NCBI GenBank assembly: GCA_963768045.1
Contig: CAVYGG010000005.1
Span: 487,269-551,268 of the forward strand
Length of the DNA: 64,000 bases
From: an uncultured Actinomycetota bacterium
GTDB taxonomy: Bacteria; Actinomycetota; Actinomycetes; Propionibacteriales; Nocardioidaceae
Direction of reading: 5' to 3'
Part shown: positions 6,782 to 62,598 of the stretch, one piece after another
Layout of the letters: the number at the start of each line of letters is the position of its first letter
How positions within the stretch are numbered: the stretch's first letter is position 1
Notes under the pieces: generated by a model
Told to the model about the DNA's origin: nothing
Database searches by the model: none
What the model saw: only the letters and a program-made list of their open reading frames with translations
Translations under genes and position numbers: made by a program

Positions 6782-6798
6782 TCACCCGAAGGGGATGA
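6782..6798. promoter_or_regulatory. Palindromic motif TCACCC-GAAGG-GGATGA (regulon box, exact)
   Basis: Exact TCAYCC-N5-GGRTGA, upstream of the FGE remnant and HAD gene. Confidence 0.7.
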
Positions 6799-6942
6799 TG
6801 CCCGCCGCTCGCTGGTGGCCCAGCATCGAAGTGGCTGCCGCGGCGAGACTGCGGAAGCCGTGCCAATCTGTCGGGTGTCCTGGACCCCGATCCCGGCAAC
6901 CGAACGATCACCAGCCGCATCCGGGAGCGAGGCGCCGAACGG

Positions 6943-7056
6943 GGCATGATCTGGATCCCGGGCGGCACCTTCCAGATGGGCTCCGACGATCATTGCCCCG
7001 AAGAGGCGCCCACGCACGAGGTGAGCATGGACGGCTTCCGGATGGACGCGCACACG
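6943..7056 (+). pseudogene. N-terminal remnant of formylglycine-generating enzyme (sulfatase-modifying factor)
   Basis: GMIWIPGGTFQMGSDDHCPEEAPTHEVSMDGFRMDAHT is the typical FGE-sulfatase N-terminus; similarity ends abruptly. Confidence 0.75.
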
Positions 7057-7100
7057 ATGCATCAGCCGAGCCCGAGCCCTAGGAAGGAATGGAGCGCGCG

Positions 7101-8027
7101 ATGACCGATCCGTTGTCCATCTGGCGGGAGGGTGCCGCCAAGGAGGCCATCCTCGGTTTCGTGGAGCAGACCTGCACGGAGGGCTCCGCCGGCTGGGTGC
7201 CGGTCGAGGAGCGGGTCGCCGTCTTCGACAACGACGGCACGCTGTGGTGCGAGAAGCCGATGCCCATCCAGCTCGACTTCGTCCTGCGCCGGCTGGCCGA
7301 GATGGCCGTGGGCGACCCGACGCTGCGCGACCGGCAACCGTGGAAGGCCGCCCACGAGCGCGACTATGCCTGGCTGGCGCAGGTCATGACGGAGCACTAC
7401 GCGGGCGACGACACCAACGTGAAGACGGTCGGGGCCGGCATCGTGGCGGCGTTCGCGAACATCACCGTCGACCAGTTCGAGGCGGACTCCCTCGAATTCC
7501 TGCGCAGTGCTCGGCACCCCACGTTGGACCGCGGCTACCTCGAGTGTGCGTACGCACCCATGCTCGAGCTCCTCTCGCACTTGAGGGCCAGCGGCTTCAC
7601 GAACTACATCGCCTCGGGTGGGGGTCGCGACTTCATGAGGCCGATCAGCCAGCAGGTCTACGGCATTCCCAGGGAAGGCGTGATCGGAAGCGCTGTCGCA
7701 CTCGCCTACATCCCGGACGAACGAGGGGGCGCCATCACCCGCCAGATGGTCGCCGACCACCTAGACGACGGTCCGGAGAAGCCGGTTCGCATCTGGACCC
7801 GCACCGGACGACGTCCCGTGCTGGCAGCCGGCAACTCCAACGGCGACATCGAGATGCTCGACTTCACCCAGCACCCGGACAAGCCCTCCCTGCGGCTCCT
7901 GGTGCTGCACGACGACCCCGAGCGGGAGTTCGACTACGTCTCAGGAGCGGAACGAGCCCTCGACCGCGCGGCCAGCAGCGGCTGGACCGTCGTCAGCATC
8001 AAGAACGACTGGGCCACGGTGTTCTGA
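7101..8027 (+). CDS. HAD-superfamily hydrolase (nonspecific acid phosphatase type)
   Basis: Motif I AVFDNDGTLWCEKP, motif II IASGGG, Lys motif GPEKP, motif IV GNSNGDIEML. Confidence 0.9.
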   Translation: MTDPLSIWREGAAKEAILGFVEQTCTEGSAGWVPVEERVAVFDNDGTLWCEKPMPIQLDFVLRRLAEMAVGDPTLRDRQPWKAAHERDYAWLAQVMTEHYAGDDTNVKTVGAGIVAAFANITVDQFEADSLEFLRSARHPTLDRGYLECAYAPMLELLSHLRASGFTNYIASGGGRDFMRPISQQVYGIPREGVIGSAVALAYIPDERGGAITRQMVADHLDDGPEKPVRIWTRTGRRPVLAAGNSNGDIEMLDFTQHPDKPSLRLLVLHDDPEREFDYVSGAERALDRAASSGWTVVSIKNDWATVF

Positions 8028-8066
8028 CGGCATCTCGTCACAGGACGTCGCCCTGAGGGCGAGGTG

Positions 8067-11000
8067 TCACGACTCCGACGCGTCCACTAGGTGTGGCACG
8101 CCGACGTCCTGGGTGAGGAGCTCCGGCGTGATGTGCTCCAGTCGGGCGCAGCCGGCCAGTCGCATGGTCGTCGTGAGCTCCTGATCGAGCAGGTTGAGCA
8201 CCCGCGCCACGCCCCCCTGCCCGTTGACGGCGAGGCCCCACACGGCAGGCCGACCGATCATCACGGCGTCGGCGCCCAAACCCAGCGCCTTCAGCACGTC
8301 GGAGCCTCGCCGAACACCACCGTCGACGAGCAGGGCCATGCGGTGGCCGGCAGTGTCGAGCGCTCGCCGGGCGCCCCGCAGCGCCTCGAGCGGCGCCGTC
8401 GCCACGTCCAGCTGCCGGCCTCCGTGGTTGGAGATGACGACGCCGTCATACCCCTCCTCAGCCGCATGGAAGACGTCCTCCTCGCGGAGGACTCCCTTGA
8501 GCCAGATCGGCAGATCGGTCTGCTGGCGCAACCAGGCGAGCCCTTCCCAGGTCATGGCCGCGTCCTTCATCGTCTCGAAGCGCAGGAGCGGTGACCGCGA
8601 TGCCAGCCCGACTCCGTCGAGATGCGGGAGATGGACCTGGCTGTCGAGCGCGAACCCATGGCGCATGTCGGTCTCCCGACGCCCGGAGACCGGCGCGTCG
8701 ACGGTCACCACCAGGCCGTGGAACCCCGCCGTGCGGGCGCGGTCGACGATCGTCGTCATCAGGTCGTGGTCGCGGAGGGGGTAGAGCTGGAGGAGGAGCG
8801 GCGCCGTCGATCCCACGAAGGCCTCCGCCACGTCCTCCAAGGAGGTCGTAGACAAGAAGGAGAGCACCATCCCGTGCCCCAGCCGCGCAGCCGCTCGCGC
8901 GGTGGCCAGCTCTCCCTCGGGGTGGACCAGCCGCTGCATCGCGGTGGGGGCGATCAGGATCGGCGAGGAGAGGGCCCGCCCGAGGAGTCGGGCCTCGGTG
9001 GAGACCGTCTCGACGTCGACGAGGACGCGGGGGCGCACGTGCAGCCAGCCATACGAGGCGCGGTTCCGCGCCAGGGCCTGCCCGTCCTCGGCTCCGCCCG
9101 CGAAGTAGTCGAAGATCGGCGCCGGGAGGACGGCCCGAGCGGCCTCCTCCATGTCGTGGAGGTTGAGCACCTGATCCGGCGTACTCGACGGTGCGCCCAC
9201 CCCCTCCACCGTGCGTTGCGCGTGCACCGGGCGGTGCGCGCGAACGACCTGACCCTCGAGGACCGACGCCCCCCGCTCCACGATCGCGAACGGCCCCACG
9301 TGGGCGCCGCTCTCGACGGCCGTCGATCCGAACCGGAGGGAGTGGTGCTCGATCGAGTGCCCGAACATCTGTGACTGATGCTCGAGGATGACACGGTCGC
9401 CGACGCTCTTGAGGTCGTACTCGCTGCCGAGCGACGAGGCCAGCAAGCATGTCCCACGGCCGACCCGGGCTCCCATCGACCGCCACAAGACGGTCAGGAA
9501 CCAGGTCCCCTGAAGTTGGGTCAGGAACGCCGCCTCCGCATCCATCACCACGGTCTCCACCAGCAGCCACCGCGTGTAGGCCCAGCCGTACGCCGGGTGC
9601 TCGCCGGCGCGCACGCGCCCCAGGACGACCCACTTGAGCAGGGGAACGCAGGCGACCTTGACCAGTCTCGGGACCAGCAGCAGCGCGGGCAGCAGGACCC
9701 ACAGGGCGGTGGTCGGCACTGCACCGACGAGCCCGTTGGCCACCGCGCCCATCAGCACGAAGCCCGCGACGTCCACCCCGCCCACAACCAACCACTGCAG
9801 CAGTGCCAAGGCGGTCTGATTGCGCGCGTACTGCACCGAGCTCACGCGGTCCGGGCGTAACGAGGCCCGGCCCACCACCCGCGGTGGCGAACCCACCGCG
9901 ACCGAGCCCCGCGGGATCACATCCCCGCCTCCGGCGACGCTCAGGTCGCCCAGGAGCGAGCCCGCGGACACCTCCGCACCGCAGAGGAGCACGCACGAGT
10001 TCGCCACGATCGCATCGTCGCCGATCCGCACCCCGGCGCTCGCTCCCTCGGCTCCGCGTGTTCCCTCCGCCTGATCGAGGGCGTACACGGCGACGTTCCC
10101 GGCGACCATGCCCCGGTCGCCGATCTCCAGCAGGTCGGGTTCGGCGGTGTAGGGCGCAGCCAGGAACGGCCGGACGCCGACTCGGGCGCCCAGGAGCCGG
10201 TACCACCAGCGCATGGGGTGGGACATCACGTTGAGCCGCAGGAACATCGCGAAGAACGGCACGTCGACCAGTCGCGCGTATACCCATCGGCTCCAGTCGG
10301 CCTCCCTCGGCAGCATGCGCTTCACGACGACGACGAGGGCGAAGTAAGCCGCCGGGATGATCACACGCAGTGCGAGAGCGGCGGCCGCGAAGAAGGACAG
10401 CGCGGCCGGCGAAGTGGACCTTCCGAGCAGCAGGTCGGCTACCGACGGCATTGCTTGGCCGAGCGCGTCGACCGTAGTGGTCACGAAGAGGATGCCGACG
10501 GCGGCGGCCAGGCTCACGAGGTAGCCGACCAGGACGAACGCCGCCACCTGCGCGCCCACGCCCGGTACATATCGTGCGGACGGCGCGGCCGGCCCGCCCG
10601 CGGCCACGCGATCGTCCACAGCCGCAAGGGGCGTCACGCTCGCGCCGGCGTCGACGACAGCGCCGCCGAGCAGGGTGCTGTGGGCGCCAATCGTGCAGCC
10701 GGCCCCGATCTCCACCGGCTCGACCACGAGCCGGCCTCCTTGTGGACGACCGGGCAGCACGGTCACGTCCCTGCCGACGACGGTGCCGTCGCCGATCGTG
10801 ATCTCCTTCATGTCGTGGAGCGCCACAGATTCCACGCGAACCTTCCTCCCGATCCGCGCGCCGCCGAGCCGGTAGAACGCCGTGAGCGCACCGGTCCCTC
10901 GCAGGACTCCCAGCTGGGCCTCGACGGCGCGGAGGGTCTGGCGCGCGAGCAGCCAGCGGAAGTATGACGGACTCCACAGGTCGGCCTGCCCTCCGGGCCG

Positions 11001-17505: not shown

Positions 17506-17548
17506 CGCTGTGCAGTCCTCTCGTCGTTCCGGCGGTTCATATGTCCTG

Positions 17549-20736: not shown

Positions 20737-20753
20737 TCATCCGTGCTGGGTGA
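20737..20753. promoter_or_regulatory. Palindromic motif TCATCC-GTGCT-GGGTGA (regulon box, exact)
   Basis: About 120 bp upstream of the DyP operon start. Confidence 0.7.
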
Positions 20754-31369: not shown

Positions 31370-31386
31370 TCACCTGATACGGCTGA
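31370..31386. promoter_or_regulatory. Degenerate regulon box TCACCT-GATAC-GGCTGA
   Basis: Two mismatches; upstream of the GAP gene. Confidence 0.45.
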
Positions 31387-31483: not shown

Positions 31484-34219
31484 TCAGAGGAGGTCGAGCG
31501 AGCGAGCCACGGCGAGGGCGTCGCTGCGGCGTCGGACGCCGAGCTTGCCGTACAGGCTGGAGACGTGCGTCTTGACCGTGTTCTCCGAGAGATACAACGC
31601 GGCCGCGATGTCGGCATACGTCGCTCCGCGCGCCAGCCCGCGGAGCACGTCGCGCTCTCGAGGGCTGAGGGCCGGACGTACGACCGTGTCGGGGACGAGC
31701 TGGCGTTCCTCGGGTGTGGCCGTCCACGGGCCGAGGACGTCGCTCATGCCGGGCAGACCGCGGGTGGCCTCGACCAGCTGGTCGACCCACGGTTCCGGGC
31801 TCTCCTGCTGCAGCCTCTCGAGCAGGACGTGGGTCGATGTACCCTGCCGCGTCCAGCCGAGGAACGGCACCGCGTTGCCGCGGACCTCCGTGACCACGAC
31901 CGCGGTCCGGAGCAGGTCCGAGGCGGTGGCCCCTTCGCCAAGCGCATCACGCAGCTGCGCCTCGCAGACGAGAGCCAGCGCCCGGCAGGGCGGCTGGACC
32001 AGTCGGACGTTCGCGGCGGCGTGAGCGAAGTGCTGCGCTGCCGTGCGTGGGTCGCCCCCCAGGTCGGCGCCGAGCCCACGTAGGAGTTCCCCTTCGCCGG
32101 GCCACCCGAGGTCATCGAGGGCCGTGGCCAGGCCCAGGAGACCGTGGTGGTCGCCGGCCAAAGCCATGAGGAACCCGCGCTCGACGTGCAGGACGGCGTT
32201 CAGGTACGGCGGGAGGTGGGGTGTCTCGACGGGCTCCTCGATGATGCGCTCGGCCGCCATGACCGCGCCGTCCATCAGCGCGAGCCGTGCGTCGCGCATC
32301 CGGGTCCAGAACTTCACGCTCCAGTCGGACGGATGCACCTTCTCCGTGGTGAGCGGTAGGTCCTCGCTCGTGCGGGGGAACGGGAGTGCGGGGAACCTGG
32401 CGAGCTGACTGACCAGAAGAGCTCTGTGCTCGGCCAGCACCGGCCGCCACGGGACGCCCTCCTCGATGTCCTCCAACAGCATCGCGGCCAGCCGCAGGCT
32501 CTGTGACTCCTTGCCCTGGAGGAAGAACACCAGGGCCAGGTGGGACATCGCCGTGATCGCGTGCACGGGCATGTTCCACGCCTGGCTCAGGCGTACGGCG
32601 TCGGTCAGGCTCTCCTCGGCTGCCTCGAGCCTGCCCAGCCAGGTCTGGTTCAGCCCGAGCTCGTGGAGCAGGTGCGGGAGGACCAGACGCGGCGGACCGA
32701 CGCCGACCTCGCCACTGACGACGTCCTCAGCGTCGGCGACGGCGGCCTCGAGCGACTCCAGGCCGAGCCGTCCCCTCATCATCCGGACGCACGCGAGCTG
32801 TACGGCGAACTCGCCGCTGGTCCGGGACTCCTTCGGCAGATCACGCAGCAGCCGGTCGATCCACGAGATCGCGCCCTCCACGTCGGAGTTGAACCATCTC
32901 TCGAGGGCCAGGCAGAACCACACGCCGGGGTTGGCGTCGACCGTCTGGGGGAACCGTCGGGCGAAGCCGCGTACGGCCGCGTGGTGGCCGTGCATGAGCA
33001 GCGCGTGTCCGTCACTGGCGATCAGGGCCGCCGCCTGGTCCGGGAGGTTCAACGCGATCAACCGCTGGAATGCGGGCTGTGCCTCGCCTCGTGCGACGTC
33101 CAGCCGCACCGCGCGCAGGACGGTCGCCTTCGCCTCGTCCACGTCGACTCCACCGGCGAGGATGCGACGACGTACCACCTCTGCCATCAGCGGATGGATG
33201 CGATAGCGGTCTCGCGAACCGGTCGCATCGGGCTCATCGACGCCGCGCTGGTGCGGAGGCTCGGTGTCGCCCGTCAACGGTGTGGCGGGCGAGGACCCGA
33301 GGTGGGTCACGAGCAGTCCGGTGGTCTCGAGCCCGGCCAGCACCTGGCCCGCGCCCGGGTCGTCCGAGAGGTGGGCGGCCGTCTCTGCGCTGACGACGTC
33401 GTTGCCGGCCACGCACAGCAGCAGATGACGCTCGCGAGGCTGCAGCGCCGCGAACACCTCGGAGGCCACCCGGTCGGCCGCGGCGAGATCGTTCGCCTCG
33501 AACCGTCGGGCCGCGGCGAGACGGTCCGGGAAGTTCCCCACCGCGCGGGCCGCGAGCACCGTCGCTCCGCACCATCCCTCGGTCCGGTCCGTGATGATGC
33601 GGGCCACCTCGGCCGAGTCGCTGCGAGAGTGCTCGGCGACGAGGACGGCGGACTCCGACTCGGTGAGGCGCAGGATCTCGCCGCGGAGGACGGTGAAGTG
33701 GCCGAGCAGCTCCGGACCGAGGCGGGTGATGGGGAGGTCCCACCGTGAGACGAGCAGCAGTCGCATGGTCTCGGGCTCTGCATCGAGCCGGTCGTCGACG
33801 TACCGCAGTGTGGCCGGCGGCAGGAGTTGGGCGTCGTCGACGATGACCAGCGGAGGGGTCCGGCCCTCGTCGGCCTGGTCGAGCACCCGGGCGAGATCGT
33901 GAGGGCCCACGGCCGGATCGCCGTGCAGCCATACGGCGTCATCGGGATCCCGTGCCGCGCGGCCGAGCCGGACCCACCCGCTGACCCCGAGCGTCTTCCC
34001 CGACCCCATCGGGCCGACGAGCAGCGTCAACGGGTTGTCGGTCACCTCGTCGAGCCGCTGCCAGAGCTGCGTTCGCGGCACATACACACGCGGCAGCCGG
34101 GGGACGTCCTGCAGGGCTCCGTGCTCGGGCAGCCGAGGGTCACCGGCGGTCTTGGCCGATCCCCGGCGCGCTGCCGTCGGACCCGTCACGTCACCCTCCC
34201 GGTCCGCCGGGTGACGCAC
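31484..34219 (-). CDS. MalT-like large ATP-binding LuxR regulator, copy 1 (start uncertain)
   Basis: Walker A GPMGSGKT, VIVDDAQ, TEGW, YRIHPL; C-terminal LSPRERDVL..IAAALYLSENTVKTHVSSLYGKLGV HTH. Confidence 0.92.
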   Translation of the reverse strand: MRHPADREGDVTGPTAARRGSAKTAGDPRLPEHGALQDVPRLPRVYVPRTQLWQRLDEVTDNPLTLLVGPMGSGKTLGVSGWVRLGRAARDPDDAVWLHGDPAVGPHDLARVLDQADEGRTPPLVIVDDAQLLPPATLRYVDDRLDAEPETMRLLLVSRWDLPITRLGPELLGHFTVLRGEILRLTESESAVLVAEHSRSDSAEVARIITDRTEGWCGATVLAARAVGNFPDRLAAARRFEANDLAAADRVASEVFAALQPRERHLLLCVAGNDVVSAETAAHLSDDPGAGQVLAGLETTGLLVTHLGSSPATPLTGDTEPPHQRGVDEPDATGSRDRYRIHPLMAEVVRRRILAGGVDVDEAKATVLRAVRLDVARGEAQPAFQRLIALNLPDQAAALIASDGHALLMHGHHAAVRGFARRFPQTVDANPGVWFCLALERWFNSDVEGAISWIDRLLRDLPKESRTSGEFAVQLACVRMMRGRLGLESLEAAVADAEDVVSGEVGVGPPRLVLPHLLHELGLNQTWLGRLEAAEESLTDAVRLSQAWNMPVHAITAMSHLALVFFLQGKESQSLRLAAMLLEDIEEGVPWRPVLAEHRALLVSQLARFPALPFPRTSEDLPLTTEKVHPSDWSVKFWTRMRDARLALMDGAVMAAERIIEEPVETPHLPPYLNAVLHVERGFLMALAGDHHGLLGLATALDDLGWPGEGELLRGLGADLGGDPRTAAQHFAHAAANVRLVQPPCRALALVCEAQLRDALGEGATASDLLRTAVVVTEVRGNAVPFLGWTRQGTSTHVLLERLQQESPEPWVDQLVEATRGLPGMSDVLGPWTATPEERQLVPDTVVRPALSPRERDVLRGLARGATYADIAAALYLSENTVKTHVSSLYGKLGVRRRSDALAVARSLDLL

Positions 34220-34388: not shown

Positions 34389-34405
34389 TCATCCGTGACG
34401 GGTGA
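34389..34405. promoter_or_regulatory. Palindromic motif TCATCC-GTGAC-GGGTGA (regulon box, exact)
   Basis: Upstream of MalT-like regulator 1, suggesting autoregulation. Confidence 0.7.
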
Positions 34406-34967: not shown

Positions 34968-34984
34968 TCACCCGGAACGGGCGA
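34968..34984. promoter_or_regulatory. Regulon box TCACCC-GGAAC-GGGCGA
   Basis: One mismatch; upstream of the gene starting at 34868. Confidence 0.6.
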
Positions 34985-35653: not shown

Positions 35654-35670
35654 TCACCCGGAAACGGTGA
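35654..35670. promoter_or_regulatory. Regulon box TCACCC-GGAAA-CGGTGA
   Basis: One mismatch; upstream of the DUF1269 gene. A further degenerate copy TCGCCC-GTTTC-CGGTGA lies at 35853-35869. Confidence 0.55.
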
Positions 35671-36011
35671 ACAGGGCGGGTCATCCGCCGGCGCGTCATG
35701 GGGCGGCCGTCCCTGGTCGCCGACGACACCGCCTCCTCGAGGTCGGCATGGAGGGCCGGCTCGACGTCAGGCTCCGCCCCGCTGAGTACGTCGCGCACCC
35801 TAGGCAGGGCTGGCCGGATGACGGTTCCCCCGGTTCAGGTGACCATCGGGCCTCGCCCGTTTCCGGTGAAGCACGCCGAGCGCGGGGCACCTAATCTGCG
35901 ATGAGCCGCAACGTGGTGCTGGGAGTGATCGGTGGACCGCAACCTCGTCCGTGCACGCACGGGAGATCGAGCACATCACGCGCCCCCGCGACGGGCACGG
36001 GTGGCGCCGTG

Positions 36012-36237: not shown

Positions 36238-36254
36238 TCACCCCGTGGGGATGA
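36238..36254. promoter_or_regulatory. Palindromic motif TCACCC-CGTGG-GGATGA (regulon box, exact)
   Basis: Preceded by an extra half-site TCACCC at 36230; upstream of the CYTH-like gene. Confidence 0.7.
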
Positions 36255-39696: not shown

Positions 39697-39783
39697 GGCC
39701 GCCTCATTTCGGTCGATCGAGTCTGGCCCGGGCCGAGGACAGCAGGCATCCCCTTCGGCGGATGAGCCTCCCGTGCAGAGCTG

Positions 39784-41237: not shown

Positions 41238-41254
41238 TCGTCCGGGGTGGATGA
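41238..41254. promoter_or_regulatory. Regulon box TCGTCC-GGGGT-GGATGA
   Basis: One mismatch; upstream of the gene starting at 41106. A weaker copy TCCCCT-TCGGC-GGATGA at 39749-39765 precedes the glucose dehydrogenase. Confidence 0.6.
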
Positions 41255-47955: not shown

Positions 47956-47972
47956 TCATCCCGAGCGGATGA
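47956..47972. promoter_or_regulatory. Palindromic motif TCATCC-CGAGC-GGATGA (regulon box, exact)
   Basis: About 60 bp upstream of the start at 47894. Confidence 0.7.
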
Positions 47973-48822: not shown

Positions 48823-49064
48823 GCGGGATTCTCCCGCCCGTCGCCTGGCACGGTTTGAGTGTGCTCGCCGCGGAGGCCCACCGCGTCCTCCGATGATGAT
48901 GATGCTGGCCGACGGAGGAAGAGGCATGTGCAGGCATTTCCTACGCGGACGAAGAATGCGAACATCGCCGGCTCGGAGTAGCGTTCCGGCCGTGCCTTGA
49001 CCCCAGACCCGCTCACGGCACAGTGCGCGTCGCTTGGGAGTAGTGGCCAGGGAGGGCACGCCGT

Positions 49065-51758
49065 ATGGAGGGAAAGCAACAGGACGATCCGACCACGGGG
49101 GCCGGTGAGCCGTTCGGCGCGCTCGCACCGTCGACCTGGTTCGGGGTTCCGACAGTGCCGGACGACTACGTCCGCCGCACTCGGGTGTTCCGGTTGCTGG
49201 ACCGTGGCGCGACCTCCCCGTTGGTACTGGTCAGTGCTCCCGCCGGGAGCGGCAAGACGTCGCTCGTAGCGGACTGGGTCAGCCTCCGGGCCTCGGACGA
49301 GCAGACGGAGTGGGTCACGTTCGAGCGGGAGGATGACGCCTTCTGGCCCGGCGTGTTGGGAGGGCTGGCGCGGCTCGGGGTCGACGTACCCTCCCGCTCC
49401 TTCCCGGCAGGCACGCTGGCCGTAGACCGTCAGTTGCTCACCGCTCTCGCGATGGTGATCGCACGAAGCGTCACGCCGTTGACCCTCGTCCTCGACGGAT
49501 ACGAGCTGAGCTCCAGAGATGTCGCCCATGACCTCGACTACCTGCTTCGGCACTCCGGGCGCCGCCTGCACATCGTCCTCGTCACCCGAGTCGACCCCAT
49601 CCTCCCGCTCTACCGCTACCGCCTGGAGGGCTCGCTCACCGAGATCCGCATGGTCGACCTCGCCTTCACCGATGCTGAGGCCGATGAGTTGCTGAGAAGT
49701 GCGGACGTGACACTGACGGCCGACTCGGTCCACGCGCTGAACGAGCGGACGCACGGATGGGTGGCCGGCCTGCGTTTCGCCTCCAAGCTCTTGGTCAACA
49801 GCGATGAGCCGGACGTGGCGGTGTCGCAGGTGGCTGGTGACAGCGGGGACATCGGCGAGTATCTGATGGGGGAGGTGCTCGCGGCTCAGTCGCCCGAGAA
49901 CCGCCACCTCCTGCTGAGTACGAGCATCCCGGCCACGCTCCAGCCCGGCCTCGCCGAAGAGCTCGGAGGGCGGGCCGCGACGCGGATGCTGTCGCTCCTG
50001 GCGAGGGGTAACGCTTTCGTGGAACCCGTGCCTGAGCATCCCGGGTTCTATCGTTACCACCCCTTCTTCAGAGACCTGTTGAGGGCCGAGTTCGCCTACG
50101 AGTCGCCGAAGGAGATGGAGCGGCTGCAGCGCACCGCCGCGGAGTGGCTCGCGCGGGAAGGGCTCTTCGCTGCCAGCATCGGCCACTACGCGGAGATCGG
50201 AGCGTGGGCGGACGCGGCCGGATTGGTCGTGGACGAGCTGGCCTTCGCGCCGCTCTTGACGGGTGGCACCGATGACCCCTTGGCGAAGGTGCTGATGCCG
50301 ATCCCCGAGGAGCTCCGAGATCCCGCTGCGTCCGTCGTACGGGCCGCTCTTGCGCTGGGCAGGGGCGACCCCGAACGCGTCACCACCGAGCTGGCCCAGG
50401 TGCCAGACGCGGAGAGATCAGCGGGCGACGGGCACAACGGAGCTCTCTCCCTGGCCGTCGCCGTCCTCCAGAGCATTCGGGCGCGCGCCTCCGACGACGC
50501 CTACGAGGCGTTCGAGCTTGCCGAGGAAGCGGCAGAGGCTCTCACCGAGCGCCGCCGAGAGACGAGGGCGGAAGCCCAGCACGAGCTCTCCGCCCTGGTG
50601 TTCGCAAGCAAGGGCATTGCAGCGCTGCGCCGAGGTCGACTCAGCCAGGCGCACGATCTCTTCACAGACGGCGCCGAGTCAGCTCACTACCTCGGTTCGG
50701 AGGCGCTCTTCGTCGAATGTCAGGGATACCTGGCCCTCATCGCTGCCCTACGGGACCACCTCTCTGAGGCTGTCCTGCTCGCCGACCAAGCCATCGCGGC
50801 CGCCGACGATGTGGGGATTCGCGTGCGAGACCGATCGGCGGCCCCGCAGGTCGCCCTGGCCTGGGTGGCCATGGAGCGCTACGACCTGAGCGCTGCCGCC
50901 AAGCATGTGAAGCTGGCGAGCCTCTCCGACGCCTTCCTGGGAGATCGGGTACCGGCGGCGATGCTGGCCCTGACCAGATCCCGCCTGCAGGCGGCACGCG
51001 GGGACCTGGACGGCGCGATCACCATCGTGGGTCAGGCATACGAGGGCATCGCCGATGGGACCGATTGGCTCGCCGCGCAGCTGCGGCTCGAGGCCCTGCG
51101 GCTGAGGGTGGCGAACGGGGACGTCGCAGGCGTCGTCCTGGAGACGCGGGATCTGGAGGACGACTACGCGGCCGAGGTGGCGCTGATCGTGGCCGAGGTC
51201 GGGCTGGTCGACGGCGACGACGACGCGGTCACGGAAGCGCTGTCACGTGTCATCGGACACGACAGCCGCCCCGGTGTGCAGATGTCAGCCTGGCTGGTCG
51301 AGGCCGAGCGTCAGCTGCGGAGCGGCTCACCGGCCAAAGCCGGAGCGGCGGTCGAGCGCTCGCTGAGACTGGCCGCTCCCGAGGGCTTCCGTCGGCCGTT
51401 CAACGAGGCCACCGCGGCGGTCACCAGCCTGCTTCCCGGGGACAACGTGATGGCTCGGGGAGTCGCATCGGCGAGGTATCCCCGTCAGACCGCGGCGAGC
51501 GGACGATGGGAGGGAGTCAGCGTCCACTCCCAGACAGCCGTCGCACAGACACTGGTCGTGGAGCACCTCACCGAGAAGGAGCTCGAGGTCCTCGGACACT
51601 TGGCGGAGCTTCTCACGACCGAGGAGATCGCCGAGACGATGTTCGTCTCGGTGAACACCGTCCGGACCCATGTACGCAACATCTTGCGGAAACTCGGCGT
51701 ACCCCGCCGAAACGCGGCCGTACGACGGGCTCGTGAGCTGGACCTCCTGCCCAAGTGA
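49065..51758 (+). CDS. MalT-like large ATP-binding LuxR regulator, copy 2
   Basis: SAPAGSGKTSL, LVLDG, TRVDP, THGWVAGL, YRYHPFF; LTEKELEVL..EEIAETMFVSVNTVRTHVRNILRKL HTH. Confidence 0.94.
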   Translation: MEGKQQDDPTTGAGEPFGALAPSTWFGVPTVPDDYVRRTRVFRLLDRGATSPLVLVSAPAGSGKTSLVADWVSLRASDEQTEWVTFEREDDAFWPGVLGGLARLGVDVPSRSFPAGTLAVDRQLLTALAMVIARSVTPLTLVLDGYELSSRDVAHDLDYLLRHSGRRLHIVLVTRVDPILPLYRYRLEGSLTEIRMVDLAFTDAEADELLRSADVTLTADSVHALNERTHGWVAGLRFASKLLVNSDEPDVAVSQVAGDSGDIGEYLMGEVLAAQSPENRHLLLSTSIPATLQPGLAEELGGRAATRMLSLLARGNAFVEPVPEHPGFYRYHPFFRDLLRAEFAYESPKEMERLQRTAAEWLAREGLFAASIGHYAEIGAWADAAGLVVDELAFAPLLTGGTDDPLAKVLMPIPEELRDPAASVVRAALALGRGDPERVTTELAQVPDAERSAGDGHNGALSLAVAVLQSIRARASDDAYEAFELAEEAAEALTERRRETRAEAQHELSALVFASKGIAALRRGRLSQAHDLFTDGAESAHYLGSEALFVECQGYLALIAALRDHLSEAVLLADQAIAAADDVGIRVRDRSAAPQVALAWVAMERYDLSAAAKHVKLASLSDAFLGDRVPAAMLALTRSRLQAARGDLDGAITIVGQAYEGIADGTDWLAAQLRLEALRLRVANGDVAGVVLETRDLEDDYAAEVALIVAEVGLVDGDDDAVTEALSRVIGHDSRPGVQMSAWLVEAERQLRSGSPAKAGAAVERSLRLAAPEGFRRPFNEATAAVTSLLPGDNVMARGVASARYPRQTAASGRWEGVSVHSQTAVAQTLVVEHLTEKELEVLGHLAELLTTEEIAETMFVSVNTVRTHVRNILRKLGVPRRNAAVRRARELDLLPK

Positions 51759-51776: not shown

Positions 51777-51793
51777 TCATCCCAAAGGGATGA
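51777..51793. promoter_or_regulatory. Palindromic motif TCATCC-CAAAG-GGATGA (regulon box, exact)
   Basis: Directly after the regulator 2 stop and upstream of the small-protein/cls genes; extra half-site TCACCC at 51763. Confidence 0.72.
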
Positions 51794-53925: not shown

Positions 53926-53942
53926 TCATCCGCCACGGAGGA
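53926..53942. promoter_or_regulatory. Regulon box TCATCC-GCCAC-GGAGGA
   Basis: One mismatch; upstream of the SHOCT/HerA-like genes. Confidence 0.55.
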
Positions 53943-56273: not shown

Positions 56274-56290
56274 TCATCCTGAGCGGGTGA
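56274..56290. promoter_or_regulatory. Palindromic motif TCATCC-TGAGC-GGGTGA (regulon box, exact)
   Basis: In the short gap upstream of the amphi-Trp gene. Confidence 0.7.
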
Positions 56291-57081: not shown

Positions 57082-57186
57082 CTCTGCGCCACCATCCGTG
57101 TCGATCATGTCTGGCTCTCGCCACTCATCAGGTCCGACGTTAGGAGCAGCCGCCAAATCGGTCCTCATCCTCCGGTGAGGAGTTTC

Positions 57187-57203
57187 TCGTCTGCCTCGGA
57201 TGA
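57187..57203. promoter_or_regulatory. Degenerate regulon box TCGTCT-GCCTC-GGATGA
   Basis: In a divergent intergenic region; extra half-site TCATCC at 57165. Confidence 0.5.
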
Positions 57204-57261
57204 GGTCGCTGCCTCCCGCCGCCGGGCACCATGACGATCGGATTCCTGGATCGAGTTGGCG

Positions 57262-58587
57262 ATGGCATGGCGTGACTCCCGCTGGCACTACGGCAACCTC
57301 CCGTCCGACGATCTGCTCGCGCTCTCGCGTCGCTTGGGCGAATCATTCCTGGGACGCTGCGTACGCCGCTTCCTGGCCATGGCCGGGATCGACCGGTGCA
57401 TCGTGCTCGCGTCCCAGGCGTTCACCGCGATCATCCCTTTGCTGATCCTCCTCTCCACCTTCGCTCCGGCCGGCCATGAGGATTTTCTGGCACAGACCAT
57501 CGTCACGAGGTTCGGACTGACCGGCGACACGGCCGCCGCCGTACATCAGCTCTTCACTACCCCCGACCACGCGTCCAGCGGTGTCAGCGTGTTCAGTGCG
57601 CTGCTGCTCGTGTTCTCGGCCGTCTCGTTCACCCGCAGGCTGCAGGCGATGTACCGAGCCGCCTGGGAGAAGGAGCACGAGGGCGTCCGGAGCGGGCTGT
57701 TCGCAGCCCTGGGACTCGCCGCCCTGCTGGTTGAGGTGCTCGTGGTCTACGCGATCAGGAGCGTGGCCAGGAGCATCCCGGTCGACTGGTTGCTGATGCT
57801 GCCCTTGTCAGCGGCCACCGGACTGGTGCTCTGGACGTCGATTCCCTACCTGCTTCTCAACCGCGCGGTCCATTGGCGACGGCTCCTCGTGACGGGAGGC
57901 GTCGCAGCCATCGGAACGGCGCTGTACGGCGTGGCGACCACTGTCTACATGCCAGGGCTCATGGAGCGGTACACCCTGGAGTTCGGCCTCTTCGGCATCA
58001 CGATCGTCCTCATCGGGTGGCTCCTGGTCGTCTCGGGTGTGATTGTCGTCAGCGCCGCGGTGGGCGCCGAGTTCGACAAGTCCAGGACGCGGTGGATCGT
58101 GCGACTCAGGACGAGGTACCACCTCGTCGACCCGGACGGCCCCGTCCTGGTGGCCGAAGACCTCGACCGTACGTCGGGCCTCGTGCTCGCCGACGTCCGG
58201 TTGTTTGTTCGAGTCGGCATCAACTGGCTGGTCCTGACCGCGGCGGTGGCGGCCGCCACCGTGATCGTCCCCGGCATCGACGTCGAGGGCGGTCTTGCCG
58301 CCTATCTGGTGGTGTCCCTGTTGTTCGGCCTCGTCAACGCCACGCTCGGACCGCTGTTGCATCTGGTCGCGCTCCCGCTGTCCGCGGTGACACTGGGATT
58401 GTTCGCACTCGTCGTGAACGGCGTCCTGCTGGCCGTCACTGCCGCGCTCACGACGAGCCTCGATCTCGGGGGCTTCGGCGACGCGGTGCTCGGCGCCCTC
58501 GTCATCTCGATCCTGACGACCTTGCTCGAGCTCGTGCTCCGTCCCATCAAGCCCGACCCCCCACGCGGGGGTCCGGGGTTTTCCTGA
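57262..58587 (+). CDS. YihY/BrkB-like membrane protein fused to a C-terminal holin-IV domain
   Basis: LASQAFTAIIPLL...FGLFG...IGWL (YihY-like), then LFGLVNATLGPLL..ALP...TLGLF.LVVNG (holin IV). Confidence 0.75.
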   Translation: MAWRDSRWHYGNLPSDDLLALSRRLGESFLGRCVRRFLAMAGIDRCIVLASQAFTAIIPLLILLSTFAPAGHEDFLAQTIVTRFGLTGDTAAAVHQLFTTPDHASSGVSVFSALLLVFSAVSFTRRLQAMYRAAWEKEHEGVRSGLFAALGLAALLVEVLVVYAIRSVARSIPVDWLLMLPLSAATGLVLWTSIPYLLLNRAVHWRRLLVTGGVAAIGTALYGVATTVYMPGLMERYTLEFGLFGITIVLIGWLLVVSGVIVVSAAVGAEFDKSRTRWIVRLRTRYHLVDPDGPVLVAEDLDRTSGLVLADVRLFVRVGINWLVLTAAVAAATVIVPGIDVEGGLAAYLVVSLLFGLVNATLGPLLHLVALPLSAVTLGLFALVVNGVLLAVTAALTTSLDLGGFGDAVLGALVISILTTLLELVLRPIKPDPPRGGPGFS

Positions 58588-59465: not shown

Positions 59466-59482
59466 TCATCCGCGGGGGGTGA
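59466..59482. promoter_or_regulatory. Palindromic motif TCATCC-GCGGG-GGGTGA (regulon box, exact)
   Basis: Near the centre of the divergent ZIP/small membrane protein intergenic region. Confidence 0.7.
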
Positions 59483-59541: not shown

Positions 59542-59838
59542 ATGGGGTGTCTGTTCGTCATGTTCGCCGGCCTGTTTCCACGGCTCGGCCTGTTGATGGT
59601 CTGGATCGCACGCCCGAACCAGGTCGATCTCGCCTTCGACGGGTGGTTCTGGCCCCTGTTGGGCATCATCTTCCTGCCGTTCACGACCCTGATGTACGTG
59701 ATCTTGTATCGCGGAGGCGGTCTCTCGGGATTCGACTGGTTCTGGATCTGCGTGGCGGTCCTCTTCGACATCGGCCACACGGTGACCGGGTACTCCCAGC
59801 GCCGGGCCGTACCGGGCTATCGGCCCCACACCCTCTGA
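59542..59838 (+). CDS. Small three-TM membrane protein
   Basis: MGCLF....FPRL...WIARP..AF..W.WPLLG.IFLP.TTL.Y; GAGGAG RBS. Confidence 0.8.
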   Translation: MGCLFVMFAGLFPRLGLLMVWIARPNQVDLAFDGWFWPLLGIIFLPFTTLMYVILYRGGGLSGFDWFWICVAVLFDIGHTVTGYSQRRAVPGYRPHTL

Positions 59839-59953: not shown

Positions 59954-60190
59954 GTGTTGGCGACGAACCCCATACAACTTCCGCGCCGACGAGAGCTACA
60001 GGTCCGCCGTGCTGTCAGAGCGAGCGTCGTGCAGATCCTGGGCGCGGTGCTCGGGCTCGCGTTTGGACTCCTCGTCCCGCGCATCGACATCGGCCCGACC
60101 GTATCGATCGGACGCGTGACCGAACTTCTGTTCACGCTCGGACTAGGAACGCTCGGGATCGTGACGTTGGCCTTTGTGATGTTCGACGAT
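59954..60190 (+). pseudogene. Probable N-terminal fragment of a membrane protein (DUF2254-like)
   Basis: Two hydrophobic helices (VVQILGAVLGLAFGLLVPRI; LLFTLGLGTLGIVTLAF), after which the coding-like signal is lost. Confidence 0.35.
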
Positions 60191-60314
60191 CTCGTCGAGG
60201 CAACTCCTCCGCACCGCACGCCGCCATCACTCGTTACGCCAGCGGAGCGCTGCAGGTCCAGCTACGTGAGCCGTACGAGCTCGGCGCGGGCCGTCCGGCT
60301 AGTACGTTGACGCA

Positions 60315-61925
60315 ATGCAGCGCGCGGGCGTCCGGATGGGTACCTCCGGGATCGTGCTTTTGACGCTCGCGTCGGGACAGTTCCTGATGACGCTCGACAG
60401 CTCCGTCATGAATGTGTCGATCGCGACCGTGGCCGCCGACGTAGGGACCACGGTGACCGGGATCCAGACCGCGATCACCCTGTACACCCTCGTGATGGCG
60501 TCGTTCATGATCACCGGCGGCAAGATCGGTCAGATCGTTGGTCGCAAGCGGGCGTTCGCGATCGGCTGCGTCGTCTACGGCTGCGGGTCGTTCGTCACGT
60601 CAATTGCGCCGAATCTCACGGTGCTGATCGTCGGATGGTCGGTCCTGGAGGGCGTCGGCGCCGCGCTGATCATGCCCGCCATCGTGGCGTTGGTCGCATC
60701 CAACTTCGGCCGCGCCGAGCGCCCTCGCGCGTACGGACTGGTGGCATCAGCCGGTGCCATTGCCGTGGCGGCCGGGCCACTCATCGGTGGTTTGTTCACC
60801 ACCTATCTGTCCTGGCGTTATGTGTTTGTCGGCGAGGTCCTTGTGGTGGGCGCGATCCTGGCCCTGACCCGGCGAATCGCCGACGTGCCACCCGAGAAGC
60901 GCGTCAAGCTCGACCTCGTCGGGACCGCCCTGTCGGCGCTCGGCCTGGCACTCGTCGTGTTCGGGATCCTGCGCTCGGGAGAGTGGGGGCTCGTCCGGGC
61001 CAAGCCGTCAGCGCCCGAATGGTTGGGTCTGTCGCCGTCGATCTGGCTGGGGCTTGCCGGGGGCGTCGTCCTCTGGCTCTTCGTGGCGTGGGAGAATCGA
61101 CAGGTAGCCCGGGGCGCCGAACCCCTCGTCGATCCCGTGATCCTTCAGAACTCGGTCCTTCGCGGCGGGCTCACCGCGTTCTTCTTCCAGTACCTTCTGC
61201 AGGCCGGTCTCTTCTTTGCGGTGCCACTGTTCCTCTCGGTAGCACTCGGGCTGTCCGCCATCGACACTGGCGTGCGACTTCTTCCGCTGTCGGTCACTCT
61301 GCTGCTGGCGGCTGCGGGAATCCCGAAGGTTTTTCCCGAGGCGTCGCCGCGCCGGGTGGCTCAGCTCGGGATACTCGCGATGTTCGCCGGCATCGTGGTC
61401 ATGGTCGCCGCGCTCGACGCCGGTGCCGGTCCCGAGATCGTCACCTGGCCGATGCTGCTGGCCGGCCTCGGGATAGGTGCGCTGGCTTCGCAGCTCGGCA
61501 GCGTCACCGTGTCCTCGGTTCCGGACGAGCAGGCCGGCGACGTCGGCGGCCTGCAGAACACGGTGACGAATCTCGGAGCATCGATCGGCACCGCACTCGC
61601 CGGCGCCGTGCTCATCTCAGCCCTGACGACGTCGTTCCTGACCGGGATCGAGCAGAACCCCGACGTCCCCTCCGAAGTCACATCCACGGCCACCGTCGAG
61701 CTCGCCGACGGCATTCCCTTCGTTTCCGATCAGCAGCTCCAAACCGCGCTCGACGAGGCAGGGGTGTCGGCGACTACAAGCGACGAGATCGTCGCCGAGA
61801 ACTCGACCGCGCGCCTCGTCGGACTGCGTACGTCGCTCGCGGTCCTGGCGCTCATCGCCTTGATCGCCCTGTTCTTCACCCGCAGGATTCCGACCGAGCA
61901 GCCAGCATCGAGCGCCGCGAGCTGA
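60315..61925 (+). CDS. MFS transporter (14-TM DHA2-like)
   Basis: FLMTLDSSVMNV, GGKIGQIVGRKR, GPLIGG, SWRYVF, DLVG. Confidence 0.92.
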   Translation: MQRAGVRMGTSGIVLLTLASGQFLMTLDSSVMNVSIATVAADVGTTVTGIQTAITLYTLVMASFMITGGKIGQIVGRKRAFAIGCVVYGCGSFVTSIAPNLTVLIVGWSVLEGVGAALIMPAIVALVASNFGRAERPRAYGLVASAGAIAVAAGPLIGGLFTTYLSWRYVFVGEVLVVGAILALTRRIADVPPEKRVKLDLVGTALSALGLALVVFGILRSGEWGLVRAKPSAPEWLGLSPSIWLGLAGGVVLWLFVAWENRQVARGAEPLVDPVILQNSVLRGGLTAFFFQYLLQAGLFFAVPLFLSVALGLSAIDTGVRLLPLSVTLLLAAAGIPKVFPEASPRRVAQLGILAMFAGIVVMVAALDAGAGPEIVTWPMLLAGLGIGALASQLGSVTVSSVPDEQAGDVGGLQNTVTNLGASIGTALAGAVLISALTTSFLTGIEQNPDVPSEVTSTATVELADGIPFVSDQQLQTALDEAGVSATTSDEIVAENSTARLVGLRTSLAVLALIALIALFFTRRIPTEQPASSAAS

Positions 61926-62069
61926 TCGGCTTCCGCTCATGTTGGTCAGGTGTCGAGCTCGGAAAGCCAGCCCAGCGCACTCAGGCTGGGAATGAAGCAG
62001 TACCGCCGCCGCGGTTGGAGATCGACGAGCGTTGTCTTCCAGATCGTCAATCGGCGACCCGTGCCGGCG

Positions 62070-62525
62070 TCACTGACGGGCCATGGCGACGCGGAGGCGT
62101 TCCTCGGGGTCGATGAAGTGGTCGTGGTCGTCCTTGCCGACGCCGATCTGGACCCAGCCGATCTGGCCGGTGAACCGACTGCTCTGTGCGGTGTGGTCGG
62201 GAGTGACGCTGGTGCCGGACTCGTAGCGATGTCGGTGGGCTCGTCGGCGGAGAAGATCAAGCTGGGTCATCTCGACGCGGCCGGTGCCGACCTCGTCGCC
62301 GTCGTAGAAGAGGGTCACGTTGCCGCCCTTGGCGAGGCCGCCTCCGTCGTAGGCAAATTCCATGCGGACCTGGTGCACGCCGGCCGGGACCGGGGAGTCA
62401 GCCTCGGTTGCGAACTCGTGGATCCCCAGAACGTAGTAGACGAACTTCGCTTTCCCGCCCTTCGTGTACAGGGCCCACCCTCCGAACCTGCCGCCTTGGG
62501 CAATGAGGACGCCCTCGGCGCCGCT
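62070..62525 (-). pseudogene. C-terminal remnant of an arylsulfatase
   Basis: GAEGVLIAQGGRFGGWALY...VRMEFAYDGGGLAKGG...FSADE.TDI...RFTGQIGWVQI...DHFIDPEERLRVAMARQ*. The catalytic domain is absent and there are small internal indels. Confidence 0.8.
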
Positions 62526-62581
62526 TCGGCGGCGAGCAACGCGACCCCATGGACGCTAAGGCGGGCCAGCGACCTCGCGTG

Positions 62582-62598
62582 TCACCCCCTTCGGACGA
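62582..62598. promoter_or_regulatory. Regulon box TCACCC-CCTTC-GGACGA
   Basis: One mismatch; immediately upstream of the arylsulfatase remnant. Confidence 0.6.

Follow-up and report, generated by a model that had tools for sequence, protein, structure and literature searches.

A palindromic promoter box shared by genes of a Nocardioides island encoding two MalT-like LuxR regulators

The palindrome TCAYCC-N5-GGRTGA is very probably the sequence to which a dimeric MalT-like transcription activator of the LAL/STAND-LuxR type binds. This assignment is based on the statistics of the motif, the geometry of the promoters, the conservation of box, regulator and target genes across genomes, and the homology to a published system. 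The analysis covered a window of 64,000 nucleotides, i.e., the whole stretch of DNA under study, from the 3.26-Mb genome of a soil Nocardioides. The palindrome TCATCC-5nt-GGATGA has been described for Actinoplanes sp. SE50/110 (Droste et al. 2020, PMC7567727), and the Nocardioides island is a new example of this known regulon; since the system has already been published, it does not represent a new regulon type.

The window contains eight exact copies of the palindrome compared to 0.03 expected, and none of 100 shuffled sequences reached eight; at up to one mismatch, 13 copies are found in total versus 0.78 expected from shuffling. All exact and all one-mismatch copies are located at the coordinates reported in an earlier note on this DNA (Table 1). 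The weaker copies named there (31370, 35853, 39749 and 57187) are also present, with two to four mismatches each, and are accompanied by a −10-like hexamer at the fixed offset of the strong sites. Three additional weak sites were found in the window at 35826, 48886 and 57165. Scanning of the window, including its coding DNA, with a weight matrix trained solely on sites of other genomes yielded 23 matches of at least 8 bits, and just three weak ones (53803, 55721 and 58004) lie deep inside genes. Although around 88% of the genome is coding, about 21 of its 26 top matrix matches (approximately 80%) are intergenic (binomial P ~1e-15). The sites at 41238 and 47956 fall within the longest open reading frames, yet they are positioned 5' of the probable true starts at 41106 and 47894, the latter being an ATG with the ribosome site GAGAGGA. 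The intergenic placement described previously holds, and the proposed distance of 30 to 200 bp from a gene start was slightly too narrow, the actual range being approximately 20 to 310 bp. The suggested regulon of around 56 kb is not continuous: the window scan revealed no box at 21-30 kb or 41.3-46.4 kb, and the island exceeds both window ends with sites at C5:465117 and C5:551466. The same scan found no box for the PLDc_N-SHOCT gene 14897-15313, and these island genes without a box count against the favoured explanation. The gene of the window that had been taken for a sulfatase encodes a weak type I phosphodiesterase-like domain and has no box; a genuine sulfatase-family gene adjoining a box lies outside the window.

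Table 1. Regulator genes and boxes of the window, with the predicted −10-like hexamers (distance from the box in nt) and the genes that follow.
Feature	Position	Strand	Match	−10-like hexamer	Description or genes read into
Box	6782..6798	+	exact	CAGCAT, 22 downstream	rightwards to HAD-like hydrolase 7089-8027 (Pfam HAD)
Box	20737..20753	-	exact	TAGCGT, 22	leftwards into five-gene operon 15518-20619: uncharacterised gene, DUF4331, DyP-like, enoyl-CoA hydratase, Mo-oxidoreductase (Pfam)
Weak box	31370..31386	-	12.8 bits	GATCGT, 22	Sap/LysE-type membrane protein 30626-31324
Regulator 1	31484..34219	-			911 aa; second, distant LAL-type regulator (putative TPR, GerE HTH)
Box	34389..34405	-	exact	TACCGT, 23	regulator 1, 170 bp 5' of the gene
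Box	34968..34984	-	one mismatch	TAACGT, 23	DUF7144 membrane protein 34440-34868
Box	35654..35670	-	one mismatch		DUF1269 gene 35034-35536
Weak box	35826..35842				second box of the DUF1269 gene
Weak box	35853..35869	+		TAATCT, 22	small uncharacterised gene 35901-36215, near-leaderless
Box	36238..36254	+	exact	TTGAAT (poor), fixed offset	uncharacterised 263-aa gene 36437-37228; holin_4_2-type membrane protein 37242-37625
Weak box	39749..39765	-	12.5 bits	CAGACT, 23	Zn-dehydrogenase 38653-39696; RDD protein 37629-38621 (Pfam)
Box	41238..41254	-	one mismatch	TACGGT, 23	uncharacterised ~440-aa protein 39784-41106
Box	47956..47972	-	exact	CATGCT, 23	second DUF7144 gene 47424-47894; probably also CDF transporter 46381-47358
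Degenerate box	48886..48902	-	7.8 bits	CACACT, 22	MBL-fold hydrolase 48037-48822
Regulator 2	49065..51758	+			897 aa; MalT-like STAND/LAL regulator (P-loop NTPase, putative MalT-type TPR, GerE/LuxR HTH)
Box	51777..51793	+	exact	none canonical at fixed offset	19 bp after the regulator 2 stop; small ORF 52101-52325; cardiolipin-synthase-like PLD gene 52350-53885
Box	53926..53942	+	one mismatch	CAGTTT, 22	PLDc_N-SHOCT protein 54033-54419; HerA-like ATPase 54438-55943
Box	56274..56290	-	exact	CACGAT, 23	Amphi-Trp protein 55968-56231
Two abutting boxes	57165..57181 and 57187..57203	divergent promoters		TAACGT, 22 left; CACCAT, 23 right	leftwards DUF6325 56644-57108 and SHOCT 56308-56577; rightwards BrkB-holin fusion 57256-58587
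Box	59466..59482	+	exact	CACAGT, 23	59542-59838; 59954-60310; MFS transporter 60315-61925
Box	62582..62598	-	one mismatch	TAGCGT, 23	small uncharacterised gene 62070-62378

The boxes are placed at a nearly constant distance from a predicted promoter element. A −10-like hexamer of the form [T/C]ANNNT is located 22-23 nt from the box, which would bring the box centre to about −43, abutting the −35 region, and corresponds to the geometry of class II activators. Of the 52 sequences flanking the best sites, eight have TANNNT at this offset (P 2.5e-9) and most others have CANNNT, and in the loci of other genomes NANNNT occurs at offset 22 or 23 in 321 of 394 sites, with around 9% expected. A recognisable −35 hexamer 17 ± 1 bp from the −10 is absent from the oriented promoter consensus, which is typical of activator-dependent promoters. 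The observed offset predicts transcription start sites 34 to 36 nt from the box. In Actinoplanes, the 3' end of the box is 34.4 ± 1.0 nt away from 17 mapped start sites (PMC7567727), which equals the offset of 22-23 nt, the 6-nt hexamer and approximately 6 nt, and the box likewise abuts or overlaps the −35 region. The strong boxes 36238 and 51777 lack a good −10 hexamer at the fixed offset, which argues against the favoured explanation. RNA contigs from soil metatranscriptomes provide weak hints, as they end 10-25 nt inside two predicted start sites: contigs from four studies cover the DUF7144 gene 34440-34868 and stop at 34908-34920, with the start site predicted near 34933, and the contig 35420-35610 ends 10 nt before reaching the start site predicted near 35620.

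A set of 80 loci (1.69 Mb) around homologues of regulator 2, which come from Nocardioides, Kribbella, Actinoplanes, Streptomyces, Kitasatospora, Intrasporangium and other genera, contains 158 exact boxes and 342 boxes with up to one mismatch, compared to 0 and 2 for a reversed control pattern. Boxes accompany the regulator-2 homologues in 76 of the 80 loci across families, and in many genomes the boxes cluster near genes for MalT-like regulators. Box number in relatives, however, correlates only loosely with the presence of weaker LAL homologues, a finding that counts against the favoured explanation. Several target genes keep their boxes in other loci, among them homologues of DUF1269 (13/13), of the MFS transporter 60315-61925 (17/24) and of the boxless PLDc_N-SHOCT gene 14897-15313, a member of the same family as 54033-54419 (box near the start in 27/29). 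Boxes also precede homologues of DUF7144, DUF6325 and the 39784-41106 family in other genomes; the latter family is represented in 26 of the 80 loci, 11 times with a box near the start, and its box-bearing homologues occur in three loci from relatives as well. In G002, the same divergent DUF6325/BrkB gene pair carries two boxes, and the homologue of the MBL-fold hydrolase is preceded by an exact box (L002 9093). Boxes are likewise found upstream of the G001 homologue of the box-36238 target and 216 bp upstream of the G001 orthologue of regulator 1 (L006 8566), and the Sap/LysE-type homologues of G010 and G025 are located beside or 3' of boxes. A box approximately 20-150 bp past the regulator stop, as at 51777, recurs in around 30 of the 80 loci. 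The DUF1269 frame of the window is broken near 35448 in this assembly.

The earlier note had interpreted the palindrome as an operator recognised by the two MalT-like regulators of the island, one of which is preceded by a box. This idea is supported, including the box upstream of regulator 1; however, the homologue of the characterised activator is regulator 2 and not regulator 1. The two proteins share a C-terminal GerE/LuxR-type HTH (regulator 2: 3.3e-14, 52.7 bits; regulator 1: 1.5e-15, 57.0 bits; Pfam cut-off 23.5). Regulator 2 has the N-terminal P-loop STAND NTPase of the MalT/LAL family: its first 350 amino acids align with residues 10-367 of E. coli MalT (8bob) at an E-value of 1.6e-25 in phmmer, and its Walker A motif is APAGSGKT with G61, G63, K64 and T65 invariant in the alignment. 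The Pfam families TPR_MalT (1.6e-10, 41.3 bits) and AAA_16 (1.1e-5, 26.4 bits) were detected below their cut-offs of 45 and 32.6 bits. The ACSP50_3915-type gene was located in Actinoplanes loci using the malT qPCR primer of the published study and the gene order 3912-3918; regulator 2 is 36-37% identical to its product over the full length (E 1e-130), with a near-identical recognition helix and HTH, and judged by sequence is the closest homologue of the characterised MalT ACSP50_3915 in the window. The region upstream of regulator 2, which is shared with the MBL-fold hydrolase, has the degenerate box 48886 only, which speaks against the favoured explanation; upstream of a 78%-identical relative, the box is 26 nt, and not 22-23 nt, away from a conserved TAGCGT. 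Regulator 1 shares around 25% identity with regulator 2 as well as with the two Actinoplanes regulators, and its orthologues in two other Nocardioides are 44-48% identical. Its TPR_12 match is under the cut-off, and the Pfam search found no NTPase family at E<=0.001.

In Actinoplanes, two MalT-like regulators are encoded within a region of 51 genes, and deletion of malT (ACSP50_3915) lowers the expression of 42 of the 51 genes, while overexpression raises at least 39; deletion of the second regulator has slight effects only (PMC7567727). Regulons of this Actinoplanes type are characterised by MalT-dependent transcription that increases on maltose or in late growth. MalT regulation was shown there by transcriptomics and the motif rather than by direct binding, which counts against the favoured explanation, and the region was reported from Micromonosporaceae only (PMC7567727). 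The Nocardioides island resembles it in having the identical 17-bp palindrome upstream of many genes, about 50 genes with two MalT-like LuxR regulators, an apparent ACSP50_3915-type regulator inside the island, and a DUF7144 homologue as neighbour of the malT gene. According to Table S3, the Actinoplanes region includes the families SHOCT, DUF1269 (four), AI-2E, BrkB (two) and MFS (two), as well as amino-acid permease, ThrE and M24 (PMC7567727). The first five are shared by the window and genome analysed here, and the last three are found elsewhere in this genome; the G000 module C4:3953-9841, which consists of amino-acid permease, M24 peptidase, MFS and ThrE genes with three boxes among them, mirrors ACSP50_3946-3950. 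In contrast to Actinoplanes, Nocardioides belongs to the order Propionibacteriales, its half-sites are a mixture of TCATCC and TCACCC, and its regulon is distributed among three or more contigs. Regulator 1 is not an orthologue of ACSP50_3917, no glucosidase or alpha-amylase genes adjoin the regulator, and the arginine deiminase operon is missing. Additional genes of the Nocardioides island encode a cardiolipin-synthase-like protein, a HerA-like ATPase, K+/Cl- channels, a CDF transporter and the DyP/Mo-enzyme operon.

In E. coli, MalT boxes have the core GGA(T/G)GA, with the promoter-proximal site overlapping the −35 region (quoted in PMC7567727). The half-site GGRTGA resembles this core, and the architecture of STAND ATPase, putative TPR-like sensor and LuxR HTH is that of MalT from E. 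coli and Klebsiella; however, the E. coli boxes are asymmetric decamers, mainly arranged as direct repeats, unlike the 17-bp palindrome of Nocardioides, and E. coli MalT controls maltodextrin uptake and catabolism genes, none of which are present in the Nocardioides island. The lux boxes of LuxR and TraR are palindromes recognized by dimeric GerE-type HTH domains, with class II activation from about −42.5. The palindrome described here would similarly be centred near −43 in place of a −35 element. LuxR/TraR-type proteins are small receptors for acyl-homoserine lactones, and their boxes of 18-20 bp are unrelated in sequence, whereas the regulator here is a STAND ATPase of approximately 900 amino acids.

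Other interpretations of the palindrome have to be weighed. Regulator 1 could be the main binder of the boxes, or the two LAL regulators could both recognise them through overlapping specificities, and regulator 2 would in that case have a different role. The GerE HTH of regulator 1 has the same NTVKTH core and a recognition helix similar to that of regulator 2, the protein is conserved in the G010 and G001 islands, and the strong box with a good −10 upstream of its gene would be expected from positive autoregulation. However, its low identity to regulator 2 and to the characterised MalT, its detection in Nocardioides only, while the boxes follow regulator-2-type genes through many genera, the absence of a regulator-1 homologue from some box-bearing loci and the slight effects of the second-regulator deletion in Actinoplanes make this unlikely. 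Far less likely still is a role of the palindrome as the binding site of a repressor, or of an unrelated transcription factor encoded elsewhere, such as the NarL-type response regulator 2969-3625, in which case the link to LAL proteins would be a coincidence. A site over the −35 region might equally block RNA polymerase, and other HTH proteins are also encoded in the window; however, no −35 hexamer is recognisable in the promoters, transcription in Actinoplanes falls rather than rises when the homologous MalT is lost (PMC7567727), and the boxes track the regulator-2 homologues across families.

As an intergenic inverted repeat with perfect 6-bp arms and a variable 5-nt loop, the palindrome might also be a non-regulatory repeat, e.g., a REP/MITE-like element, an RNA hairpin or a terminator. 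The copy number in the whole genome and the geometry of the promoters effectively refute this reading. The palindrome is not REP-like, because the whole genome has just 13 exact copies, eight of them within the window; they cluster in one island, and their flanks are unrelated to each other. An equal frequency genome-wide or in coding DNA, which the earlier note had named as refuting its proposal, is not seen. The Y/R position shows no covariation (on the plus strand C.A in 2/8 and G.U in 4/8 exact copies), the pairable strand is independent of gene direction, and the sites are found 5' of genes at a fixed distance from the −10 and not past stop codons with a T-run.

A MalT-like activator would bind a box that fills the place of the −35 element, with its edge 22-23 nt from the −10 hexamer, and would recruit RNA polymerase to otherwise weak promoters by class II activation. 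We infer activation rather than repression, and regulator 2 would be the most likely binder, switching on about 20 promoters and at least 30 genes of the island as well as smaller modules elsewhere in the genome. Regulator 1 would be among its targets and is a possible second-tier regulator, which would result in a two-tier circuit. The targets would mostly be small membrane proteins, transporters, ion channels and lipid-modifying enzymes. It is tentatively suggested, as a possibility rather than the probable case, that the system represents an old and widespread actinobacterial membrane-remodelling regulon with a ligand other than maltotriose, and with a two-regulator cascade in Nocardioides. 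Its conserved core may consist not of sugar or amino-acid metabolism but of small membrane proteins, comprising DUF7144, DUF1269, PLDc_N-SHOCT, DUF6325, BrkB, AI-2E and MFS together with ion channels and lipid-modifying enzymes. Such a programme may act in slow-growing or stressed cells via a cascade from regulator 2 to regulator 1.

The palindrome TCAYCC-N5-GGRTGA, a box of 17 bp, occurs in eight exact copies in the window, all of them at the positions reported in the earlier note (see table); 0.03 copies are expected, and eight or more were found in none of 100 shuffles. Allowing up to one mismatch gives 13 boxes against 0.78 expected, again in agreement with the earlier positions. The genome (G000; 3.26 Mb, 70% G+C, five contigs, with the window at C5:487269-551268) contains 13 exact boxes, and with eight of these in the window the box does not behave as a REP-like repeat, which would be spread genome-wide or be frequent in coding DNA and which the earlier note had named as the case that would refute its reading. 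A genome-wide weight-matrix scan yielded 26 matches of at least 16 bits, about 21 of which are intergenic, though around 88% of the genome is coding. The window matches at 41238 and 47956 are only apparently coding, with better-supported start codons downstream of both. A matrix derived solely from sites of other genomes gave 23 matches in the window, of which 20 lie outside gene bodies and 17 have a -10-like hexamer 22 or 23 nt from the box edge. Genes were called with a home-made caller based on third-position G+C (GC3) and then annotated with Pfam; start codons are approximate, and a generous distance window was used for tallies of boxes near starts.

When sites are oriented, the box edge and a TANNNT hexamer are 22 or 23 nt apart at 20737, 34389, 34968, 35853, 41238, 62582 and two sites on contig C4, and CANNNT occupies the same offset at 6782, 47956, 53926, 56274 and 59466. 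Eight TANNNT hexamers among 52 flanks correspond to P ~2.5e-9. In 15 loci fetched from relatives, NANNNT peaks sharply, with 27 flanks having it at offset 22 and 19 at offset 23 against about 2 elsewhere, and in all loci pooled the hexamer stands at offset 22/23 in 321 of 394 sites. No ordinary -35 hexamer 17 bp from the -10 was seen in the oriented consensus. Because the hexamer lies at a fixed 22-23 nt, the box centre is placed near -43, abutting the -35 position; together with the absent ordinary -35 hexamer, such an arrangement is that of a class II activator site. A sigma-factor -35 element could be ruled out, since the box is palindromic and, at 22-23 nt from the -10, too distant for a -35 hexamer. 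An RNA hairpin or terminator was also ruled out: the Y/R position lacks covariation, the pairable strand and the gene direction disagree, and a T-run is absent.

The same geometry indicates the gene served by each box; box 20737 belongs to the leftward five-gene operon and not to the rightward SDR gene, and box 34389 belongs to regulator 1. The offset of 22-23 nt, the 6-nt hexamer and a further ~6 nt predict a box-to-TSS distance of 34-35 nt, which equals that published for Actinoplanes sp. SE50/110, where the 3' end of the palindrome, overlapping the -35, is 34.4 +/- 1.0 nt from the TSS (Droste et al. 2020, PMC7567727). Metagenomes of soil and rhizosphere contain the window stretch, and soil metatranscriptomes contain small parts of it. 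Four soil RNA runs were compared as assembled contigs, from which starts and strand are not readable and in which uncovered stretches carry no weight. They give two weak hints: RNA contigs of four studies span the DUF7144 gene 34440-34868 and end at 34908-34920, with the predicted TSS near 34933, and an RNA contig at 35420-35610 ends 10 nt before the TSS predicted for the DUF1269 promoter.

Two large LuxR-type regulators are encoded in the window. Regulator 2 matches AAA_16, TPR_MalT and GerE (Pfam), and over its N-terminal 350 residues it aligns with E. coli MalT (structure 8bob, 1.6e-25). A full-text search for the half-site led to the Actinoplanes study, which was the only match in the literature on the motif and LuxR/LAL regulators outside subscription journals. 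It describes a 51-gene 'maltose-regulated large genomic region' (ACSP50_3900-3950) with two MalT-like LuxR regulators, in which 17 mapped TSS are preceded by the palindrome 5'-TCATCC-5nt-GGATGA-3'; the authors pointed out that it resembles the MalT box of E. coli, GGA(T/G)GA. Deletion of malT (ACSP50_3915) lowered 42 of the 51 genes and its overexpression raised at least 39, and deletion of the second regulator had slight effects only (PMC7567727). In the Actinoplanes loci analysed here, the regulator-2-like gene carries the malT qPCR primer of that paper with 0-3 mismatches and is flanked as published by DUF1269 (ACSP50_3912), 3913, 3914, a DUF7144 homologue (3916), a second LAL gene (3917) and BrkB (3918). 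Regulator 2 and the product of this gene are 36-37% identical over the full length (E 1e-130), and their recognition helices are nearly identical (VSVNTV[RK]THVR.ILRKL...RRN.AVRRAR). A search for an autoregulatory box of regulator 2 yielded no more than a degenerate site; the upstream box of the closest relative is 26 nt from a conserved TAGCGT. Regulator 1 shares ~25% identity with every other LAL compared, has orthologues in Nocardioides only, and is preceded by a box in the window and in a related genome (G001).

The genes behind the boxes mostly encode small membrane proteins: DUF7144 (twice), DUF1269, PLDc_N-SHOCT, SHOCT, DUF6325, Amphi-Trp, holin_4_2 modules, BrkB, RDD and Sap/LysE. Boxes also serve genes for transporters and channels (MFS, CDF), for two hydrolases (one MBL-fold, one HAD), for a Zn-dehydrogenase, for a cardiolipin-synthase-like PLD and for a HerA-like ATPase, as well as a five-gene DUF4331/DyP/crotonase/Mo-enzyme operon. 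Table S3 of PMC7567727 contains SHOCT, DUF1269 (four genes), AI-2E, BrkB (two), MFS (two), amino-acid permease, ThrE and M24 peptidase families. No boxes were found at 21-30 kb and 41.3-46.4 kb of the window, and none of at least 2 bits for the ClC channel gene, the holin-phosphodiesterase/AI-2E/K-channel genes (41.3-46.4 kb) and the SHOCT gene 14897; homologues of these genes elsewhere do carry boxes. Further boxes lie outside the window. The C4 cluster corresponds to ACSP50_3946-3950, with which the Actinoplanes region ends, and is located here on another contig than the window. The C3 boxes adjoin genes for a GH15 glucoamylase/trehalase-like protein, glucose-6-phosphate dehydrogenase and a LURP-one-related protein, and this segment may represent a branch of the regulon linked to sugars.

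Regulators, boxes and further features in the window and elsewhere in the genome
Feature	Coordinates	Remark
Regulator 1 (LAL, LuxR-type)	31484-34219 (-)	
Regulator 2 (MalT-like)	49065-51758 (+)	
Exact boxes	6782, 20737, 34389, 36238, 47956, 51777, 56274, 59466	
One-mismatch boxes	34968, 35654, 41238, 53926, 62582	
DUF7144 gene	34440-34868	
DUF1269 gene	35034-35536 (-)	
HerA/FtsK-like ATPase gene	54438-55943	
1850-aa ORF	8067-13619 (-)	
Amino-acid permease, M24 aminopeptidase, MFS transporter, ThrE exporter cluster	C4:3953-9841 (L096)	three boxes among the genes: 5531, 6785, 8392
Box	C5:551466	70 bp upstream of a bestrophin-like gene cut by the window end
Box	C5:465117	adjoins a sulfatase-family gene
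Three weaker boxes around another LAL paralogue (C3:885514-887760)	C3:880650-889944 (L097)	

Several window genes have peculiarities of their own. The frame of the DUF1269 gene appears broken near 35448: its first 30 residues (ATG 35536) are in another frame than the rest, and one metatranscriptome contig has an extra C after 35448, so that a 1-nt assembly deletion is probable rather than a pseudogene. At 57165-57203, two back-to-back boxes with centres 22 bp apart face divergent promoters (DUF6325-SHOCT leftwards, BrkB-holin rightwards); in the equivalent pair of a related genome (G002), the two boxes are 68 bp apart. The HerA/FtsK-like ATPase gene is translationally coupled to that of a PLDc_N-SHOCT membrane protein, without a nuclease partner, and its homologues in G002 and another relative (G012) also reside in box-controlled operons. 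The 1850-aa ORF combines cNMP-binding, adenylation, carrier and hexapeptide-repeat parts with a C-terminal FMN-dependent dehydrogenase; no box was found upstream, and it apparently lies outside the regulon.

Across 30 related genomes, 0-23 exact boxes per genome were counted (0-2 for the reversed control), with copies adjoining LAL genes in several genera and families. In the 15 fetched loci, boxes precede homologues of DUF7144, PLDc_N-SHOCT, the DUF6325-SHOCT pair, BrkB-holin, holin-phosphodiesterase, Sap/LysE and the families of window genes 39784 and 36437, a pattern seen in four further genomes of the genus and in two further families; the recurring core consists of a DUF7144 gene, a LAL gene and the box. 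Aligned regulator-2-like proteins were then used to search more widely; this identified the genus as Nocardioides, with regulator-2 orthologues in the cultured N. ungokensis LMG 28591, Nocardioides sp. YIM B13467 and NPDC127503, and gave 80 loci (1.69 Mb) from Nocardioides, Kribbella, Actinoplanes, Paractinoplanes, Streptomyces, Kitasatospora, Intrasporangium, Cellulomonas, Jiangellaceae, Streptosporangiaceae and uncultured actinomycetes. They hold 158 exact boxes and 342 with up to one mismatch (control pattern: 0 and 2), and 76 of the 80 have at least one. Among target families in other loci, a box accompanies PLDc_N-SHOCT in 27 of 29 cases, DUF1269 in 13 of 13 and MFS in 17 of 24. A box lies ~20-150 bp past the stop of the MalT-like gene in about 30 of the 80 loci, as at window position 51777; many also have one 100-300 bp upstream, and boxes frequently flank the regulator gene on both sides. 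Of 200 genomes drawn evenly from the class, including one unpublished genome (G054, one copy) on which no conclusion depends, 33 had at least five exact copies (maximum 19), and the control never exceeded 3. The island is patchy within Nocardioides, because most complete genomes of the genus in this draw have 0-2 copies; other Nocardioides have 6-23. It looks accessory and has possibly spread horizontally, as was also proposed by the Actinoplanes authors, who found their region in Micromonosporaceae only (PMC7567727).

Promoter geometry, co-occurrence with the regulator across genomes and the Actinoplanes match all support the earlier note's view of the palindrome as the operator of the island's MalT-like STAND-LuxR regulators. 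Most likely, a MalT-like regulator acts at the palindrome by class II activation, with regulator 2 as predicted binder and regulator 1 as one target: regulator 2, bound to the box abutting the -35, would activate the target promoters and, via box 34389, would switch on regulator 1. The window reveals no new mechanism, since motif, promoter position and activator family had been published before. Three points are new with respect to the searchable literature beyond PMC7567727: the system is widely spread over actinomycete families, its distance to the -10 is fixed among them, and small membrane proteins form a conserved core. The pairing of box and regulator and the shared target core extend beyond Micromonosporaceae to Nocardioides, Kribbella, Streptomyces, Kitasatospora, Intrasporangium and other actinomycetes, and about a dozen DUF families gain a common regulator and a testable promoter signature. 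The conserved targets are mainly small membrane proteins of unknown function, and these data suggest that the name 'maltose-regulated' may misdescribe the real role of the regulon.
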